From Vampirovibrio chlorellavorus (lineage in GTDB: Bacteria > Cyanobacteriota > Vampirovibrionia > Vampirovibrionales > Vampirovibrionaceae): a stretch of 64,000 bases of DNA. Below are positions 7,513 to 14,794 of this stretch, piece after piece. The notes beneath the pieces were generated by a model. The model was given only the letters and a program-made list of their open reading frames with translations. It was not told where the DNA came from and ran no database searches. The stretch lies in contig NZ_QFWH01000001.1 of assembly GCF_003149375.1 (NCBI RefSeq), positions 24,753 to 88,752 of the forward strand. The letters are read 5' to 3'. Position numbers and translations under genes: made by a program. Position 1 is the stretch's first letter; the number at the start of each line of letters is the position of its first letter.

Positions 7513-7821
7513 CTTGTATTGCTCTTTCTTTGTCTTGACTATTCCTGAGAGTTTGGAGAGCCTGCCTGGGGTTCAAGGAATAAACCAGACCCGGCCAGAT
7601 TCCAAACTGGACGTTGCCGAGGTCTTTGGAATCGTTGAATTCAGCGGAAACTGGGCGCACCGGTTCCAAAGTGTGCCTATTCTAGCAGAAACCAAAAAGT
7701 GCGTTAAGGATTTTGCACAAGCCCTTGTCCAATGTTTGAGAGGGCCGTTCGGGTCAGAAGGTCAGCCAGCTTAGTATGCTACTATTTTTTAATCCCCAAC
7801 CGATTGGTAAATCTCTTCCTT

Positions 7822-9393
7822 ATGAAAAACAAAGCCACCAACGCCAAACTGGTCATCCGCAATGCCACTCCAGCCGATTTGGTTGAAATTCAGCGCCTCT
7901 CTGAAAAAGTGTATCCCGATATACCGCCTTACTCACTGGATATCCTGAGAGGCCAGCTCAACAATTACCCGGAAGGGCAGTTTGTGGCCGTATACGATTC
8001 TAAAATCGTGGGCTATTGCGCCACCATACGGGTATCGGAGCAAGTGGCGATGGCCCCTCACACCTGGCGTCAAATTACGGGCGGCGGCTACGGCTCTACC
8101 CACTTGGCCACGGGGGAGTATCTTTATGGCATGGAAATCTTTGTGGATCCTGATTATCGGGGCTTGCGCATTGGGGAGCGCTTGTATAGCGAGCGCAAAA
8201 AATTATGCCGATACTATCGCCTGAAGGGTATCGTCTTTGGCGGGCGCATGCCGATGCTGAAGAAGCGGCTGAAGCAAGTGGGCTCGGTGGAGCAATATGT
8301 CGAGCAGGTCAAAGACCGTAAAATCAACGACCCCACCACCAGTTTTCAGTTGCGCCAGGGCTTTGAAATTATGGGGATTTTGCCCGATTACCTGCCCAGC
8401 GATAAGGAGTCCATGGGCACGGCCACCCATATGGTTTGGCGGAACCCGGAAGCTCCGGAGCCAGAGGGAAAATCACGCACCAATGCCGGTCGATTGCCGG
8501 AATCGGTGCGGGTGGCTACGGTGCAATACGAGCAGCGACGCATTCATTCCTTTGAAGAGTTTGAACAAATTGTGACCTACTTTGTGGATGTGGTTTCGGA
8601 TTATCGCTCGGATTTCGTGGTGTTCCCGGAGTTGTTTACCTTACAGTTGCTCTCCATTGAGAATGAACCCATTCCGCCGGATAAGTCCATTGATCGGCTA
8701 ACGGAATATACGGAAAAAATCAAGGAAATGTTCCTGCGGCTGGCCATTAAGTACAACATCAATATCATTGCCGGTTCGCACCCCACCAAAATGAAGGACG
8801 GATCCATCCAGAACGTGACTTTTGTGTGTTTGCGAGATGGTTCCATTCATGAGCAACCCAAGATTCATCCTACGCCCAACGAGCGGTATTGGTGGAATAT
8901 TCAGGGAGGTGACAACCTCAGCGTCATCCAGACCGACTGCGGCCCCATTGGGGTTTTGATTTGTTATGATTGCGAATTCCCGGAACTGGCCCGGCACTTG
9001 ATCGATCAGGGGGCCAATATTTTGTTTGTCCCCTTCTGTACCGATGAGCGCCAAGGGTATTTGCGGGTGCGTTATTCGGCTCAGGCCAGAGCGGTTGAGA
9101 ACCAGTGTTATGTGGCCATGTCCGGTAACGTGGGTAACCTGCCCCGGGTTCATAACATGGACATTCAGTACGCCCAAAGCTGTATTTTAACCCCGTGCGA
9201 TTTCTACTTTGCCCGCGATGGCATTGCCGCCGACACCACCCCCAACGTGGAAACGGTGGCATTTGCCGATTTGCGACTGGAATATATTTATCGGGCCCGC
9301 CATTCTGGCACGGTAATGAACCTGAAGGATCGTCGTCACGACCTCTATAGTGTGGTGTGGCATAAAAATAAGAAGCTCAGAAGCAAAGAGTAG
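7822..9393 (+). CDS. Bifunctional GNAT acetyltransferase / carbon-nitrogen hydrolase (nitrilase superfamily)
   Basis: N-terminal GNAT (VDPDYRGLRIGERLY); C-terminal C-N hydrolase with E (VFPELF), K (QPKIHPTP) and C (ICYDCEFPE) triad; ATG 7822 preferred over track start 7732. Confidence 0.9.
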   Translation: MKNKATNAKLVIRNATPADLVEIQRLSEKVYPDIPPYSLDILRGQLNNYPEGQFVAVYDSKIVGYCATIRVSEQVAMAPHTWRQITGGGYGSTHLATGEYLYGMEIFVDPDYRGLRIGERLYSERKKLCRYYRLKGIVFGGRMPMLKKRLKQVGSVEQYVEQVKDRKINDPTTSFQLRQGFEIMGILPDYLPSDKESMGTATHMVWRNPEAPEPEGKSRTNAGRLPESVRVATVQYEQRRIHSFEEFEQIVTYFVDVVSDYRSDFVVFPELFTLQLLSIENEPIPPDKSIDRLTEYTEKIKEMFLRLAIKYNINIIAGSHPTKMKDGSIQNVTFVCLRDGSIHEQPKIHPTPNERYWWNIQGGDNLSVIQTDCGPIGVLICYDCEFPELARHLIDQGANILFVPFCTDERQGYLRVRYSAQARAVENQCYVAMSGNVGNLPRVHNMDIQYAQSCILTPCDFYFARDGIAADTTPNVETVAFADLRLEYIYRARHSGTVMNLKDRRHDLYSVVWHKNKKLRSKE

Positions 9394-9487
9394 TCTCCTT
9401 CCATTGGGATGGTATTTGCCAAAAATCCTCCCCGACTGATTACTTCCGTGTAGGTTTTTTCTGCTTTCAGTTGGAATAATCCATTTA

Positions 9488-9628
9488 GAGACTATCCGAA
9501 AAGTATTTAGTCCGGTGTGGCGACAAGGCCGGAGCAGCGCAAGCAAGGCGCTTATACTGATAAGTAACGAAGCTGAGCAGCACACGAACGCAGTAGACGC
9601 CCGGAATGGAGGCTTTTCGGATAGTCTC
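9488..9628. mobile_element. Non-autonomous MITE (~141 bp) with 16-bp perfect terminal inverted repeats and a TTA target-site duplication
   Basis: GAGACTATCCGAAAAG (9488-9503) and CTTTTCGGATAGTCTC (9613-9628) are exact reverse complements; TTA directly flanks both ends; no transposase inside. Confidence 0.8.
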
Positions 9629-9715
9629 TTAGAGACCGGGCTGTTATCTTTACTCCTTGCCTTTGGGGTGATTGCCGGGGCATTTTGGGATGCGAAAAGA
9701 AATTCGTTTTCAGGG

Positions 9716-9762
9716 CTTGACTCCGTACCCTTGACCCCGTACCAAGGTACAGGGATTAAAGT
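9716..9762 (+). promoter_or_regulatory. MerR-type promoter/operator with a tandemly duplicated -35/left half-site
   Basis: TTGACC (9731-9736), dyad CCGTAC-caag-GTACAG, 20-bp spacer, TAAAGT (9757-9762); preceded by the near-identical 14-mer CTTGACTCCGTACC (9716-9729); matches the Tn21/Tn501 mer promoter layout TTGACT-CCGTAC-n4-GTACGG. Confidence 0.85.
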
Positions 9763-9785
9763 AGGTTCATACGGAGGACACCCCC

Positions 9786-10226
9786 ATGCATTCCCTGAAA
9801 TCTGGAGAACTGGCCAAGCAGGCCAACGTGAACCCGGAAACACTCCGTTATTATGAGCGAGAGGGCTTGTTGCCGGAACCCACCCGCACCGAGGCGGGAT
9901 ATCGGCTGTATCACCCCGATGATGTGAAGCGGGTGCGCTTTATCAAAAAGGCCCAGGAATTGGGCTTCTCCCTGAAGGAAGTGAAAGAGCTGCTGGCCCT
10001 CAAGTTGAACGCCGATCACTCTGCCAGTGAGGTAAAACGCCTCACCGAGCATAAAATTGAGGCGATTGAAGCCAAAATCCAGAGCTTGCAGGCCATGAAA
10101 AACGTTTTGAAGGATCTGGCTTCGGCCTGTTCCGGCACCGGCAGCGTGGATCATTGCCCCATTCTGAATTGTCTGGAAGATAACACTCAAGAGAAAGGAG
10201 GTGAAAACTCATGCAAAACCTGTTAG
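9786..10226 (+). CDS. MerR-family heavy-metal-responsive transcriptional regulator (CueR/MerR-like)
   Basis: N-terminal MerR HTH (SGELAKQANVNPETLRYYEREGLL), GFSLKEVKELL, metal-binding loop CSGTGSVDHCP; GGAGG RBS upstream. Confidence 0.95.
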   Translation: MHSLKSGELAKQANVNPETLRYYEREGLLPEPTRTEAGYRLYHPDDVKRVRFIKKAQELGFSLKEVKELLALKLNADHSASEVKRLTEHKIEAIEAKIQSLQAMKNVLKDLASACSGTGSVDHCPILNCLEDNTQEKGGENSCKTC

Positions 10227-10333
10227 TACGCAGTTTCATGCCCCAGGCTGAACAAACCAAAGAGTGTAACTGCAATCCCTGCACGTGCGATCCGTGCGAA
10301 TGTGGCCCGCAATGCAGCTGCCACCAGCAGTAA
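10211..10333 (+). CDS. Putative metallothionein, 40 aa, four C-x-C motifs (absent from ORF track)
   Basis: Hand translation MQNLLVRSFMPQAEQTKECNCNPCTCDPCECGPQCSCHQQ*; AAAGGAGGTG RBS 7 nt before ATG 10211; overlaps the merR stop by 16 nt; followed by a hairpin. Confidence 0.8.
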   Translation: MQNLLVRSFMPQAEQTKECNCNPCTCDPCECGPQCSCHQQ

Positions 10334-10364
10334 CCATACAATGCCCCGCCATGCCCCCTTCTCC

Positions 10365-10394
10365 GGCCCCGTCTATTGAGTGATAGATGGGGCC
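10365..10394. terminator. Hairpin between the metallothionein-like gene and the convergent GNAT gene
   Basis: GGCCCCGTCTAT-tgagtg-ATAGATGGGGCC (12 bp with one G-U pair) followed by tggctttt. Confidence 0.65.
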
Positions 10395-10400
10395 TGGCTT

Positions 10401-11480
10401 TTACGCCACAGAAACAAGCGACGCAACCGCCCCTCCAGGAATGAAGCCGGGCAGAAACAAACGCCCGAGGTCTGGAATTTTCGCAGAAATGCCCGTTATC
10501 TCCGGTATTTGGATTGGGCTTAACGTTTTATATTTGACATAATTCACGTATGCCTGCCCCCGGATTGATTTCGGGTTGGCCAATAACAGGGAGTAATAGG
10601 GATCGGTGCGGTTGGCAATTCCGGCTTTGTAGCCATGCTCCCCGTCTCCCAGGTTGATTTGCAGTATGTTATACTCCGTAGCCCTTGCCATGCGGTGGTA
10701 CAGGCTCAGCAAACCTGGAGCGAACTCCTGATACTCTCCGGTGTTGATGGTCATGACGGAGTAAAGTGTATGGCCCATCAGAATATTCATGGTCAGATTG
10801 GTAAGAGTACCGTTCAGATAAAACCCTTCCAGAAGCAAAGCGCCCTGTTCCTCCAGCGCTTGTGCCCATGCCACGATGAAGTCCCGCTCACGGAGATCGC
10901 TAAAATAGGAATGTCCGGCTTTTTGTGTCCAGTACGCCAGATGGTGCTTAAAAAACAGGGAAAAAAATTGCTGAATGCCATCAATCCCTGAAAAACGCCG
11001 CAGCTCAGGATGCAGCGCTTCCGATTTTTTGAGTTTGCGACGAATGTCCTTCCGTTTGGCGGCACTCAACTGGCTCAAATAAGCATCGAAGCCATGGTGC
11101 AAATCAACCCAATAAGCGGTGGAACTGGGTTTTTGGAATATTTCAAGCCCCAGTTCCGTCAATAACTCAAACCGCTGAAACGCCCGGCGACTCTCCGGCC
11201 AGGTTAACGCCAAATAATCCCACTGGCTTTGGGGCTGCAGGCTGGCAAATTGCTCGTAGCAACGCTGGTCAAAATCCTGAGACCAGGCATTGTTCCACCC
11301 TGCGTAACGAAGCTCCTTCAGCGCAACGCCCTTGCACATTTCACGGCGATGAATCGCCAGATTGTGGTGGACATCCACAATGTCAAACTTGGGGGACAGG
11401 TACTGCCACCAACACTCGAAAAAGCTTTGTAACTGATAAGGATGATGGATCTCTGATAGCACAGTTGATTCAGCAATCAT
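10401..11480 (-). CDS. GNAT-family acetyltransferase (CelD/BcsL, Acetyltransf_6-like)
   Basis: FDAYLSQLSAAKRKDIRRKLKK, APGLLSLY and INLGDGEHGYK motifs typical of this family; ATG 11480 preferred. Confidence 0.75.
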   Translation of the reverse strand: MIAESTVLSEIHHPYQLQSFFECWWQYLSPKFDIVDVHHNLAIHRREMCKGVALKELRYAGWNNAWSQDFDQRCYEQFASLQPQSQWDYLALTWPESRRAFQRFELLTELGLEIFQKPSSTAYWVDLHHGFDAYLSQLSAAKRKDIRRKLKKSEALHPELRRFSGIDGIQQFFSLFFKHHLAYWTQKAGHSYFSDLRERDFIVAWAQALEEQGALLLEGFYLNGTLTNLTMNILMGHTLYSVMTINTGEYQEFAPGLLSLYHRMARATEYNILQINLGDGEHGYKAGIANRTDPYYSLLLANPKSIRGQAYVNYVKYKTLSPIQIPEITGISAKIPDLGRLFLPGFIPGGAVASLVSVA

Positions 11481-12027
11481 GGGCAGTCCCAGGGTTATGG
11501 GCTCAATTGGGCTTCGGTTGGCCGAACCCCACACGGAATAGCAATCAAAGACAGGTATCAATTTGCGTATTAGGATAAAAACTATCCGGGAGAAAAAATT
11601 GACCTTCCGTCACATACCTGCAGAAGGGCTTGCGTCCATCCGCACGTTTGAAAAAAGTAAGGCCGCCTTACCTCAAAAATGCCCCAATGCTCCCTTGAGG
11701 CAGTTTGATCAATCCAGACTAATGGCAGTTGCCCACAATTATTTACACATATTAAGTAAAAACTTGTATCCAAAAACAGGGGATTTGGAGAGATTGGCAT
11801 ATCCAGCAAAGCAGCGGAAGATATGCGTTTTTTATCGGCTGGATAGATGGCCACAAAAGCGAACCGAGCCTCTTCATTCTAAATGATTGTTTTTAATTTC
11901 TATTGTTGTAATATGAGATCAGTGGAGAGGTTCACCGGGCTGGTGATGAACCCATCCATGGGGTATCCCCGGTTGGTATCCCCGGGCTTTGAGTGAAGTG
12001 AGTGTGTGTTTAGAGAGGCTGTGTTGT

Positions 12028-12691: not shown

Positions 12692-14794
12692 ATGCCCACC
12701 ACCCCACTGCCATTCCATGCCGACTCTCACCCTGACAACCTTTCCGCCCTGGTCTGGCAAAGCATGCTCAGCCAGTTGACCCCAACGATTTCTGAGAACA
12801 ATCCATCGTCGATTTCATACATCCCGCCCGGATTGCGACTTTCCCAATGGCAAGGCTGGGAGGCAATATGGCCACAACCCGATGACCATTGGGTCGCTTT
12901 GTATGAGCAAACCCAGGCGCGATTGGCCCGACAAAATCGCAAAAAAAAGGGCGAATTGCAGCAAGGGGTTTTTTATACCCCGGAGCCCATGGCCCGCTAT
13001 CTGGTACGGCAAACCCTGGGCGTTTTTCTACAGCAGCGCTATCAGGCCATTGCAGGGGCCATTTTAGAAAATCAGGTGCAAGCAGCGCAAACACTGGTGG
13101 ACGAGGTTCAGGGGGTGAAAGTGATCGATCCGGCTTGTGGCACCGGGGTATTTTTAGTGGCCGCTTTACAGTGCCTCAGCGAATTTTATCAGCGACTTCA
13201 AGAGCAATTTACGACCATCCACATTGAGGGTAACGCCCAATTCGCCATCCGGCATCAGTTATACGGCATCGACATTGATCCGCTGAGCGTGGCCATAACC
13301 GAATGCCGATTGTGGCAATGGGCCCACTGGCTTGAGGCCCAAGACCGTGCGGACGAATCGTTTTTTACTCATACCAATTTGATGGCGGCAACTTTGATGG
13401 CGGCGGATACCTTGAACGCCTCGCCCTTTCCAGACCTGCGCTGGCAGTTTATTGTGGGCAACCCACCGTTTGTCTCGGAAGTACGCAAGCAGGCTGAACG
13501 TTTTAAAGCACTTCAGCACACCGATTTTTATCAGGCCAAAATGGATGTCTGCGACGCCTTTACCGCCTGGGCCATTCAGCACCTTTCGCCCAACGGACAA
13601 CTGGCTTACGTGTTGCCCATTTACTGGATGCAGCGAACCAGTAGCCAGTCGCTGCGAACGCTACTGTGGGAAACAGGGCGATTCCGGCAATTATGGCGTT
13701 TTGGGGACAGTCCCATTTTTAAAAACGCACCCGGTCATCATCCCTCGTTGCTCCTTTGGCAGAAATCGTTGTCAAATCTTAAGAACGTCGAGAAGGCTAG
13801 CAGGCAATCCATCCAATGGGGAACAGCGGAGACGGTAGAAAGCCTCTCTGAGTCTGGGCTATCGGCGGCCTGTATATTAAACGATGCCCGTTCCGGAAAA
13901 TTTGTAGTGGGCGAACAACAGACCATCGATCTCCTCCATCGCTTATCCGACTTGCACACACTAATTCCTGAAAAAGCCATTCAGCAGGGCATTGTGCTGC
14001 CCCAGGGACGTTTGAAAAAATCGGATTGGCGGCAGCAAACGCCATCCTTTCAAGCCCAATTTTCCCAGGATGCGGGCATTTTTTTGCTGACGGACGCGGA
14101 AGTGGCAGCGCTCTCTTTCAACGATTTTGAACGGGCTTTGCTGAAGCCCTACTATGGACCCACCGGCTTTTTACCCTTTCAGGGATTTCAACAAAACAAG
14201 GCGTTGTACCAACTGATTTACACCGATGCCCCAGCCCGGAAAAAAATAGCCACACATCCTGATCGCTACTCCAATCTCCGGGCCCATCTCGATCGTTTTG
14301 CCCCCGTGTTGACCGCCGCCTTCAAGCCCTATGGTTTGCATCGTCCCCGGCAGCCCCACTGGTTTGAAAACCCTTGCAAAACACTCTGCCCCCGGCAAGT
14401 GCCCTATCCCGCCTTTGCCGTGGTGGAACACCCTGCTTATGTGTCTGAAGGCTTTTACATCTTGCAACCCGAGAATGCAGGACAAGCGCATTTCTGGACA
14501 GCCCTGCTGAACAGCCAGCTGGGCTGGTTCTGGTTGTATCATCAAAAACGCAAAGGGCAGCGGCTGCAAATTGATAAAGACGTCTTGCAGGTGTTTCCCC
14601 AGCCGCCCTCCGTTACGGAAGCAGCGATAGAAACGCTGGCAACAATCAGCCAAAAATTGGCCCAGCCTGTATCAGCATTAGAACGCAAAACGCTTTTGAA
14701 CAGGCTGAATAAACAGGTTTTTCAACTGTATCAATGCAGTCCAGAGGAAGTGGCATGCGTGAGGGCTGCCTATAACGCTATGGGCTTTGCGTGA
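12692..14794 (+). CDS. Gamma-class adenine DNA methyltransferase (TaqI/Eco57I-like) with C-terminal target-recognition domain
   Basis: GVFYTP, motif I VIDPACGTGVFL, YGIDIDP, motif IV IVGNPPF, TaqI_C-like region (LHRPRQPHWF...ALLNSQL). Confidence 0.85.
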   Translation: MPTTPLPFHADSHPDNLSALVWQSMLSQLTPTISENNPSSISYIPPGLRLSQWQGWEAIWPQPDDHWVALYEQTQARLARQNRKKKGELQQGVFYTPEPMARYLVRQTLGVFLQQRYQAIAGAILENQVQAAQTLVDEVQGVKVIDPACGTGVFLVAALQCLSEFYQRLQEQFTTIHIEGNAQFAIRHQLYGIDIDPLSVAITECRLWQWAHWLEAQDRADESFFTHTNLMAATLMAADTLNASPFPDLRWQFIVGNPPFVSEVRKQAERFKALQHTDFYQAKMDVCDAFTAWAIQHLSPNGQLAYVLPIYWMQRTSSQSLRTLLWETGRFRQLWRFGDSPIFKNAPGHHPSLLLWQKSLSNLKNVEKASRQSIQWGTAETVESLSESGLSAACILNDARSGKFVVGEQQTIDLLHRLSDLHTLIPEKAIQQGIVLPQGRLKKSDWRQQTPSFQAQFSQDAGIFLLTDAEVAALSFNDFERALLKPYYGPTGFLPFQGFQQNKALYQLIYTDAPARKKIATHPDRYSNLRAHLDRFAPVLTAAFKPYGLHRPRQPHWFENPCKTLCPRQVPYPAFAVVEHPAYVSEGFYILQPENAGQAHFWTALLNSQLGWFWLYHQKRKGQRLQIDKDVLQVFPQPPSVTEAAIETLATISQKLAQPVSALERKTLLNRLNKQVFQLYQCSPEEVACVRAAYNAMGFA

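Follow-up and report, generated by a model that had tools for sequence, protein, structure and literature searches.

The locus described here raises the question of whether a metal sensor of the MerR family in the predatory bacterium Vampirovibrio chlorellavorus controls, together with its own gene, a bacterial metallothionein (MT) of only 40 residues. We analysed a window of 64,000 nucleotides (64 kb) of contig NZ_QFWH01000001.1, in which a regulator gene, merR, is followed by an overlapping open reading frame (ORF) for a cysteine-rich peptide. A reading of these letters without database searches, which we call the sequence-only reading, had proposed that the two genes form a MerR-controlled operon and that the peptide represents a new class of bacterial MT for Cu(I) or other soft metals. 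Our results suggest that they probably constitute a metal-inducible, autoregulated, two-gene Vampirovibrio operon for a metallothionein-like peptide, the metal probably being Cu(I). Judging from gene sequences and their contexts, the small gene is real, its product is a credible MT-like peptide under MerR control, and the peptide exemplifies a wider family of module-bearing peptides that has no name.

The 40 codons of the ORF translate to MQNLLVRSFMPQAEQTKECNCNPCTCDPCECGPQCSCHQQ. Eight cysteines (positions 19, 21, 24, 26, 29, 31, 35 and 37), all of them in CxC pairs, make up 20% of the peptide (8/40) and 36% of its final 22 residues (8/22), where they are arranged with one histidine (His38) as (CxCxP)3 + xCxCH, the prolines being residues 23, 28 and 33. 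The only aromatic residue is a phenylalanine in the N-terminal part, replaced by leucine in two related genomes (L001 and L003). In its low mass, its high content of cysteine in CxC or CC pairs and its scarcity of aromatic residues, the peptide has the size and composition by which metallothioneins are recognized. The start at 10211, the stop at 10333, the strong Shine-Dalgarno (SD) sequence, the overlap with merR, which amounts to 16 nt, and the eight cysteines in the last 22 residues were all found where the sequence-only reading had placed them. Nevertheless, cysteine richness alone is weak evidence for a gene because one other stop-to-stop frame in the window likewise reaches eight cysteines in 25 residues.

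Comparison with other genomes of the genus provided independent evidence for coding. The closest relatives of the regulator came from V. chlorellavorus NCIMB 11383 (94% protein identity), a Vampirovibrio metagenome-assembled genome (MAG; 92%) and V. chlorellavorus Vc_AZ_2 (89%). The host is thus an organism of the Melainabacteria type. These three other Vampirovibrio genomes (L001–L003) keep the ORF, its frame, its position next to merR and all eight cysteines, and the SD sequence and ATG are invariant in the alignment of all four. Outside the overlap with merR, 16 of the 21 variable columns of the ORF fall on third codon positions (P = 7e-5). The pairwise ratio of nonsynonymous to synonymous substitution rates (dN/dS) is 0.02–0.27 in the peptide frame and exceeds 1.5 in both other frames, a pattern indicative of purifying selection on the peptide. 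DNA identity among the four genomes is 82–95% across promoter, merR and peptide gene, whereas the sequence preceding the promoter and that following the peptide stop are only 26–64% identical in most pairs; conservation ends at the stop codon itself. No RNA family in Rfam matched positions 9400–10700. On all this evidence we consider the ORF almost certainly a genuine coding gene. The sequence-only reading had also held that ORF callers missed it. This did not stand for the peptide itself, since the exact 40-residue protein is already in a public protein collection (sources NCBI and Logan) and is gene-called in a Logan assembly; it did stand for homologues in two Sphingomonadales isolate genomes, described below. 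The peptide is therefore unnamed and without a family, rather than uncalled.

The DNA flanking the two genes fits control by a metal sensor (Table 1). The −35 and −10 boxes in front of merR are separated by 19–20 nt, a hallmark of MerR-activated promoters, and the spacer carries an imperfect dyad, CCCCGTACC-AA-GGTACAGGG. Promoter identity among the four Vampirovibrio genomes is 88–95%, compared with 26–64% farther upstream. The operator/promoter pattern occurs once in the window, with none expected from shuffled sequences, and a search for a second operator copy across the 64 kb found none. A 14-bp tandem duplication (CTTGACTCCGTACC / CTTGACCCCGTACC, positions 9716–9743) gives the window strain two copies of the −35 box and half-operator and is specific to it: the counterpart of the upstream copy is a 14-column gap in L001 and L003 and unrelated sequence in L002. 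The duplication could affect the basal level or inducibility of the promoter. Downstream of the peptide, a hairpin (10365–10394) of 13 pairs, including one G-U pair, and a 4-nt loop has a minimum free energy of −26.8 kcal/mol (z = −3.6). All four genomes have a strong hairpin directly after the peptide ORF, but in two unrelated sequences (z = −3.0 to −5.9), which argues that the boundary of the unit is conserved and not merely the DNA. The mer-type promoter, the downstream hairpin, to which 12 bp had been assigned, and the compact merR-peptide unit proposed from the letters alone were thus borne out, and the gene order, overlap, MerR-type promoter and terminator-like hairpin seen in the DNA all point to metal-sensor control of the peptide.

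Table 1. Features of the merR-peptide locus, in window coordinates.
Feature	Position	Strand	Basis and remarks
Extra upstream −35 box and left operator half-site (CTTGACTCCGTACC)	9716–9729	+	Sequence; alignment of four genomes
MerR-type promoter/operator	9730–9762	+	Read from sequence; conserved in four Vampirovibrio genomes
−35 box, TTGACC	9731–9736	+	Spacer to −10 box 19–20 nt
−10 box, TTAAAG/TAAAGT	9756–9762	+	
SD sequence of merR (GGAGGA core)	9772–9779	+	Column nearly invariant in alignment
merR, MerR-family metal-sensor gene, 146 residues	9786–10226	+	Stop TAG 10224–10226; Pfam, NCBIfam
SD sequence of peptide gene, AAAGGAGGTG	10194–10203	+	Inside 3' end of merR, 7 nt before ATG 10211
40-residue cysteine-rich peptide gene	10211–10333	+	ATG 10211, TAA 10331–10333; proposed metallothionein-like metal-sequestering peptide
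Intrinsic-terminator-like hairpin and tail, TGGCTTTTAC	10365–10404	+	Folding; four-genome comparison
GNAT/FemAB-like convergent gene	10401–11561	−	Stop abuts terminator; conserved neighbour in Vampirovibrio

Next, we considered which metal the regulator might sense. The protein matches the Pfam models PF13411 (MerR_1), PF09278 (MerR-DNA-bind) and PF00376 (MerR) with E values of 1e-22 to 3e-17, combines a helix-turn-helix (HTH) with a dimerisation helix that ends in a loop bearing a cysteine pair, and has a dN/dS of 0.05–0.13 among the four Vampirovibrio genomes. It scored 120–149 bits against the ZntR, MerR, CadR and CueR models of NCBIfam. The only cutoff that it passed was that of ZntR NF007069 (149.2 versus 143 bits); with the other ZntR model, TIGR02043, it stayed below the cutoff (140.8 versus 167.95 bits), and the ZntR ligands, namely the C79 equivalent, the C114/C115 pair and H119, are absent. 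The Hg(II)-MerR model TIGR02051 was missed as well (139.1 versus 150.85 bits), with Ala80 in place of the third cysteine. The score for CueR TIGR02044 was 120.2 versus a cutoff of 147.4 bits, Ala80 being flanked by serine and the loop reading C-x8-C instead of C-x7-C, although this failure does not exclude two-thiolate sensing of the CueR kind.

Residue-level alignment placed the ligand residues more precisely. The best relative of the regulator in the PDB is Bacillus MerR 4UA1. The loop cysteines C115-x8-C124 align with C114/C123 and C117/C126 of MerR proteins, and Ala80 aligns with the third ligand cysteine of Bacillus MerR 4UA1 (C79), Tn501 MerR 5CRL (C82) and CadR 6JGV (C77), which by helix register is the position of CueR Ser77. 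His123 is replaced by tyrosine in L003 and is therefore not a conserved ligand. Two-thiolate sites without a cysteine at position 77 are the mark of monovalent-ion sensors such as CueR and GolS. Among the regulator relatives, L006, L007, L009 and L010 keep the third cysteine, whereas L004, L005, L008 and L012 lack it. The closest of the latter (L004, L005 and L008, 46–49% identity) each directly precede a P1B ATPase gene, and the one ATPase read to its C-terminus, that of L008, has the CPC, YN and MTLSS signature of Cu(I) pumps. Because of the two-thiolate site without the position-77 cysteine and the P1B ATPases of the relatives, Cu(I), or Ag/Au, appears to be the favoured inducer, in agreement with the Cu(I)/soft-metal assignment of the sequence-only reading, while Hg, Cd and Zn are further candidates in view of the C-x8-C loop and the operator of mer type.

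The regulator also ends in a conserved C143-K-x-C146 motif (SCKTC, SCKIC, PCKTC and SCKVC in the four Vampirovibrio genomes). Codons 143–146 of merR and its TAG (10212–10226) overlap peptide codons 1–6, so that the CKxC pair and the MQNLL start of the peptide share bases and this segment is doubly constrained. None of eleven non-Vampirovibrio MerR relatives drawn from genomes has a cysteine-rich small ORF beside it; the pairing with a peptide is thus not general to this MerR branch.

From this arrangement we infer how transcription from the promoter, translation and metal binding would be connected. The apo-regulator would sit on the dyad within the over-long promoter spacer until a soft metal, most likely a monovalent one (Cu(I), or Ag(I)/Au(I)), binds C115 and C124 in the loop. 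As is known from the family, the metal-bound regulator would then realign the over-spaced −35 and −10 boxes and activate its own gene. The peptide gene would be co-activated, with translation coupled through the 16-nt overlap and the strong SD sequence, and the last 22 residues, with their four CxC pairs and His38, would fold around a small metal-thiolate cluster, so that the cytoplasmic metal is buffered. Such buffering would lower the inducing signal and thereby provide negative feedback.

The peptide's module is not confined to Vampirovibrio. A word-indexed protein search with the peptide alone returned only itself, while HMMER, run exhaustively over 1.8 billion representatives, added six proteins, each containing CxC[DN]PCxC[DN]PCxCG modules in repeats and most of them eukaryote-like, and a profile of module-bearing small ORFs retrieved many proteins of 29–70 residues ending in GC[KR]CNPCTCNPC[KN]C. 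We examined the genomic context of the module on contigs of nine module-bearing proteins. Five of the nine (clusters, ten contigs), from ORFs of 30–40 residues, are encoded divergently from a 129-residue MerR with two loop cysteines and no third cysteine, the other neighbours being variable; this MerR is present on nine of the ten contigs, and the tenth, which breaks off 150 nt before the peptide gene, retains the operator. The 129-residue regulators belong to Sphingomonadales (Aquisediminimonas profunda, 83%; Sphingomonas rhizophila, 71%; Allosphingosinicella), and the intergenic spacer contains TTGACTCCGTACCAyGGTAC.... The complete genomes of A. profunda (CP080327.1; L147 2772–3000) and S. 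rhizophila (CP060717.1; L149 2473–3000) contain uncalled ORFs of 40 (MKKTIETNPAASPNKGTCRCNPCTCSACSCNPCTCNPCKC) and 33 residues (MTDNSKRACQCSPCTCAPCNCEACTCGKIRVAL), respectively, each with an SD sequence and a mer-type operator and divergent from merR; the gene tables of both leave the interval before merR blank. The ORFs of the Sphingomonadales differ in length by multiples of three. A metagenome scan with the DNA motif yielded, among the matches listed, mostly out-of-frame tandem repeats, the useful ones being a few small ORFs and contig L055, which has the same divergent merR/peptide layout.

Two other carriers of the module adjoin a metal-sensor gene or copper-pump genes. P0030 (L150 186–820), a 69-residue protein ending in ...CSNPNCTCNPCNCDPCMCGQTTSTA, is encoded about 130 nt downstream of the gene for a repressor of the CsoR family (PF02583), which parallels the logic of RicR and MymT but with a CxCxPC module. 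The 143-residue protein P0006/P0008 (L015 2211–6384) carries three HAHGGCTCNPCTCDPCTCGS modules on a bacterial contig, with a PpoB2/DUF2182 membrane-protein gene on one side and two HMA genes and a CopA-type ATPase gene on the other; the start predicted for it overlaps the preceding gene and has perhaps been set too early. Of the remaining two, one lies on an uninformative 1-kb contig and the other among phage-like genes. The repeated association of the module with soft-metal sensors and copper pumps is solid.

How the Vampirovibrio and Sphingomonadales sets are related is less clear-cut. Their cores, C[NT]CNPCTCDPCEC and C[RK]CNPCTCNPCKC, are identical in 10 of 13 residues, and both common descent with transfer and independent recruitment are possible. 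The operator of the Vampirovibrio promoter, TTGACnCCGTAC-N4-GTAC, also precedes the Sphingomonadales peptide genes and other genes of the MerR clade. We rejected operator likeness as proof of common origin, the Cys77-containing MerR loci L010 and L011 having the same operator. The chances seem to us evenly balanced that the Vampirovibrio peptide belongs to a scattered, undescribed family of stand-alone mini-metallothioneins of 30–70 residues, each with one CxC[ND]PCxC[DN]PCxC module, found with MerR in Vampirovibrio and Sphingomonadales, with CsoR, in CopA/HMA contexts and on phage-like contigs; the same module occurs in plant type-2 MTs, in their C-terminal domain. The small size of its members would explain why they are unnamed and often uncalled in isolate genomes.

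Further occurrences and features of the module were noted in passing. In the Sphingomonadales, a conserved element TGATTCGCC-N4-GGCAAA lies in the 5' untranslated region (UTR) between the −10 box and the SD sequence (L137 4968–4986; same place in L139, L140, L144, L146, L147 and L055). It could form a small hairpin or serve as a second regulatory site, and Vampirovibrio lacks it. Module-bearing small ORFs at L023 1073–1168, L099 1723–1782 and L153 4001–4165 are in phage-like settings, either beside terminase-like and IscU-like genes or surrounded by numerous tiny ORFs and a T4-type RNA ligase; a membrane anchor is predicted for one of these module-bearing ORFs. A tblastn search against plasmids gave no significant match and surfaced an unannotated 54-residue ORF (MTTQSIGCNCSPCNCSPCTCSPCNCSPCTCTVCLCGTAKQNECCGASKNTTANA) on plasmid2 of Calothrix sp. 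NIES-4101 (AP018275.1 67694–67858; L152 3013–3177), which has no adjacent metal regulator and could be either a genuine gene or an artefact of repeats. The eukaryote-like proteins (P0003, P0005, P0007; L121 354–965; L131 1–205) have 2–10 CxCDPCxCDPCxC modules in tandem. The source of one is a catalogue of marine eukaryote transcripts, another lies in DNA of 22% GC, and one is apparently fused to a metacaspase-like start.

Several observations weigh against a Cu(I)-responsive operon for a peptide of wider kinship. A search of the 64-kb window for copA/HMA or another copper gene found none. The C-x8-C loop resembles that of Hg-MerR and the only family cutoff passed is a ZntR one, which leaves the assignment of Cu(I) insecure. 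Identity between the regulators of Vampirovibrio and Sphingomonadales is only 34% and, because the operator they share is typical of the MerR clade as a whole, the modules may have arisen by convergence instead of from a common ancestor. Neither the peptide nor 11 related bacterial peptides matched any model in Pfam (to E ≤ 10) or NCBIfam, and short cysteine-rich sequences yield inflated or convergent similarity. The likeness to plant MTs given below is partly circular, as the plant set was selected by the motif, and homology and convergence are both possible there. Moreover, the 18 N-terminal residues of the peptide are fairly conserved, which a metallothionein role does not explain, and the CKxC tail of the regulator is likewise unexplained by the proposed mechanism.

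These points have to be weighed together with other explanations of the locus. The operon and the sequestering role could be as proposed and the metal instead a toxic ion of divalent or thiophilic character (Hg(II), Cd(II), Zn(II) or Pb(II)), which we judge unlikely, if by no means negligible. The operator is of the canonical mer type (TCCGTAC-N4-GTAC...), the nearest structure is Bacillus MerR, the loop has the MerR spacing, the ZntR model NF007069 is passed, the Sphingomonadales regulators carry the JGI label 'mercuric resistance operon regulator', and plant MT2-type domains bind Zn and Cd. However, the third ligand cysteine of such sensors (MerR C79/C82, CadR C77, ZntR C79) is alanine in all alignments, the ZntR set C114/C115/H119 is absent, His123 is tyrosine in L003, the three closest relatives without the third cysteine precede P1B ATPases, of which the one read to its C-terminus is of the Cu(I) type, and other carriers of the module adjoin CsoR and CopA/HMA genes. 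In addition, merA, merT and merP were not noticed among the immediate neighbours classified, at which no query for MerA, MerT or MerP was aimed. It is improbable, in our view, that the peptide is chiefly a partner of the regulator, that is, a metallochaperone or a MerD-like anti-activator that resets the switch by drawing metal from MerR or passing metal to it rather than a bulk store, given that some carriers of the module have no MerR partner (those downstream of CsoR, next to CopA, within multi-module proteins and on phage-like contigs) and that the strong SD sequence suggests high rather than stoichiometric output. Such a partner would nevertheless suit the tight, conserved coupling of the genes, the overlap fit for coupled translation, the recurrence of the MerR pairing in two phyla with no other constant neighbour, and the conserved CKxC tail as a possible docking or exchange site.

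We give little credence to a thiol-rich redox or electrophile buffer, or to the modified or secreted precursor of a peptide resembling ribosomally synthesized and post-translationally modified peptides (RiPPs), under a MerR-type regulator of oxidative or thiol stress. The moderately conserved 18-residue N-terminal part and the cysteine-rich C-terminal part do resemble a leader and core, a GNAT/FemAB-like convergent neighbour is conserved in Vampirovibrio, and some MerR-family members sense redox changes or electrophiles. Yet the GNAT gene lies on the opposite strand past the terminator and has no counterpart at the loci of the Sphingomonadales, of CsoR and of CopA, genes for radical-SAM enzymes, cyclases, proteases or exporters were not identified among the classified neighbours, and the regulator has the loop cysteine pair of a metal sensor instead of NmlR or SoxR patterns. 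That the ORF is untranslated, the conserved stretch being a chance open frame in the 3' UTR or terminator of merR, is scarcely credible: the coding substitution pattern is confined to the peptide frame, the SD sequence and ATG are invariant, conservation stops with the ORF, Rfam gave no match, and the Sphingomonadales insertions and deletions are multiples of three. What speaks for chance is that cysteine-rich small frames such as the other one in the window do exist and that most of the metagenome motif matches listed were repeat artefacts. A metal-inducible, probably Cu(I)-inducible, operon for an MT-like peptide is the reading that we retain.

The surroundings of the unit vary among the Vampirovibrio genomes. 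The gene for a fusion of GNAT and CN-hydrolase upstream of merR (7732–9393) is absent from the MAG L002, which retains merR and the peptide despite this loss and has a 2-oxoacid:ferredoxin oxidoreductase gene directly upstream of merR. Two genes downstream of the peptide, positions 12692–14794 encode a 700-residue N6-adenine methyltransferase that has the domains MmeI_Mtase and Eco57I, resembles restriction-modification enzymes of type IIG/IIL and is kept in L002 and L003.

According to a 2020 paper, SmtA and MymT were the only two bacterial MTs that had been functionally investigated (PMC7387436). The sequesterers of cytoplasmic Cu(I) in bacteria that a 2024 review names are MymT, CutC, CopZ and Csp, with nothing like the peptide described here (PMC11672702). 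If our reading is correct, a third and much smaller type of peptide, travelling with its own sensor, would be a new component of bacterial soft-metal buffering, and the pair would offer work on biosensing or bioremediation a minimal natural cassette of sensor and sink. It would also mean that metal regulons contain small genes omitted by annotation. Through the Sphingomonadales homologues, the idea can be tested in hosts that grow in culture and are amenable to genetics.

Comparison with characterized proteins supported only part of the claim that the peptide founds a new class. No described MT family was matched in Pfam, NCBIfam or the PDB, and the SmtA/BmtA, MymT and eukaryotic MT models, against which the sequence-only reading had suggested comparing it, did not match; on the other hand the peptide is not unique, the module being paired with Sphingomonadales MerR, with CsoR and with a CopA cluster. 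A PDB sequence search with the peptide gave only chance matches to epidermal growth factor (EGF)-like and pacifastin cysteine motifs, and in the literature on Vampirovibrio, on bacterial MTs and on MerR/CueR with cysteine-rich small proteins we found no description of this peptide family. By motif, the nearest characterized relative is the C-terminal cysteine domain of some plant type-2 MTs (GCTCNPCKCNPCNCK; several match GC[KT]CNPC[TK]C[ND]PC[NT]CK), which has the same CxC-x2-CxC-x2-CxC spacing with N-P/D-P as the bacterial peptides. Alignment of a profile of the bacterial peptides with this domain by hhalign gave 97.5% (E = 7e-12, 22 columns) with a plant set chosen by the same motif. The Pfam model PF01439 (Metallothio_2) matched none of 12 bacterial peptides at E ≤ 10, only the three-module P0006 scoring (19.6 bits, below the cutoff of 23). 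As the model misses the bacterial peptides and the plant set was chosen by motif, we do not claim membership among plant type-2 MTs. These plant proteins have about 80 residues, an extra N-terminal cysteine domain and a long spacer, unlike the Vampirovibrio peptide, which in turn has a fourth CxC pair and a histidine.

The sequence-only reading had instead pointed to ciliate Cu-thioneins. Its observation on spacing holds: the Tetrahymena Cu-MTs of subfamily 7b, which are Cu-induced and Cu-binding, are built of CKCXXCKC units (PMC1808422), with the CxCxxCxC spacing of our peptide, but the plant domain is closer by motif. The Tetrahymena proteins are long, multi-module and eukaryotic, with lysine next to cysteine, without N-P/D-P and without bacterial-type regulation, whereas no lysine adjoins a cysteine in the Vampirovibrio peptide, which has no Pfam match. 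SmtA/BmtA offers a likeness in gene arrangement, a bacterial MT gene adjoining its own metal sensor, and the start of SmtA reads CxCxPCxC (KCACEPCLC). SmtA has about 56 residues and a Zn4Cys9His2 zinc-finger-like fold, and is transcribed divergently from its ArsR/SmtB repressor (PMC7387436); the partner of the Vampirovibrio peptide is a MerR-family protein, the SmtA/BmtA model PF02069 gave no match at E ≤ 10, and SmtA 1JJD was not among the PDB matches. MymT of Mycobacterium tuberculosis is, like the proposed product, a small cysteine-rich peptide that buffers Cu(I) in the cytoplasm under the control of a copper sensor (PMC7387436, PMC10141476, PMC11672702). Its cysteine pattern is different, it is derepressed by a CsoR-family repressor (RicR) instead of being driven by a MerR activator, and no family model joins the two.

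On the side of the sensor, the regulator shares with MerR, CueR, ZntR and CadR the HTH, the coiled coil, the C-terminal cysteine loop and a promoter with a 19–20-nt spacer and dyad. It differs from them in having alanine instead of cysteine or serine at positions 77–82, a C-x8-C loop and the extra C-terminal CKxC, as well as in being the first gene of its own operon, with a 40-residue peptide as the target in place of a pump or mer genes. In Pseudomonas aeruginosa, CadR activates the MT-like Zrd protein (PMC12301328), which provides a partial precedent for a MerR-family sensor that drives a sequestering protein.

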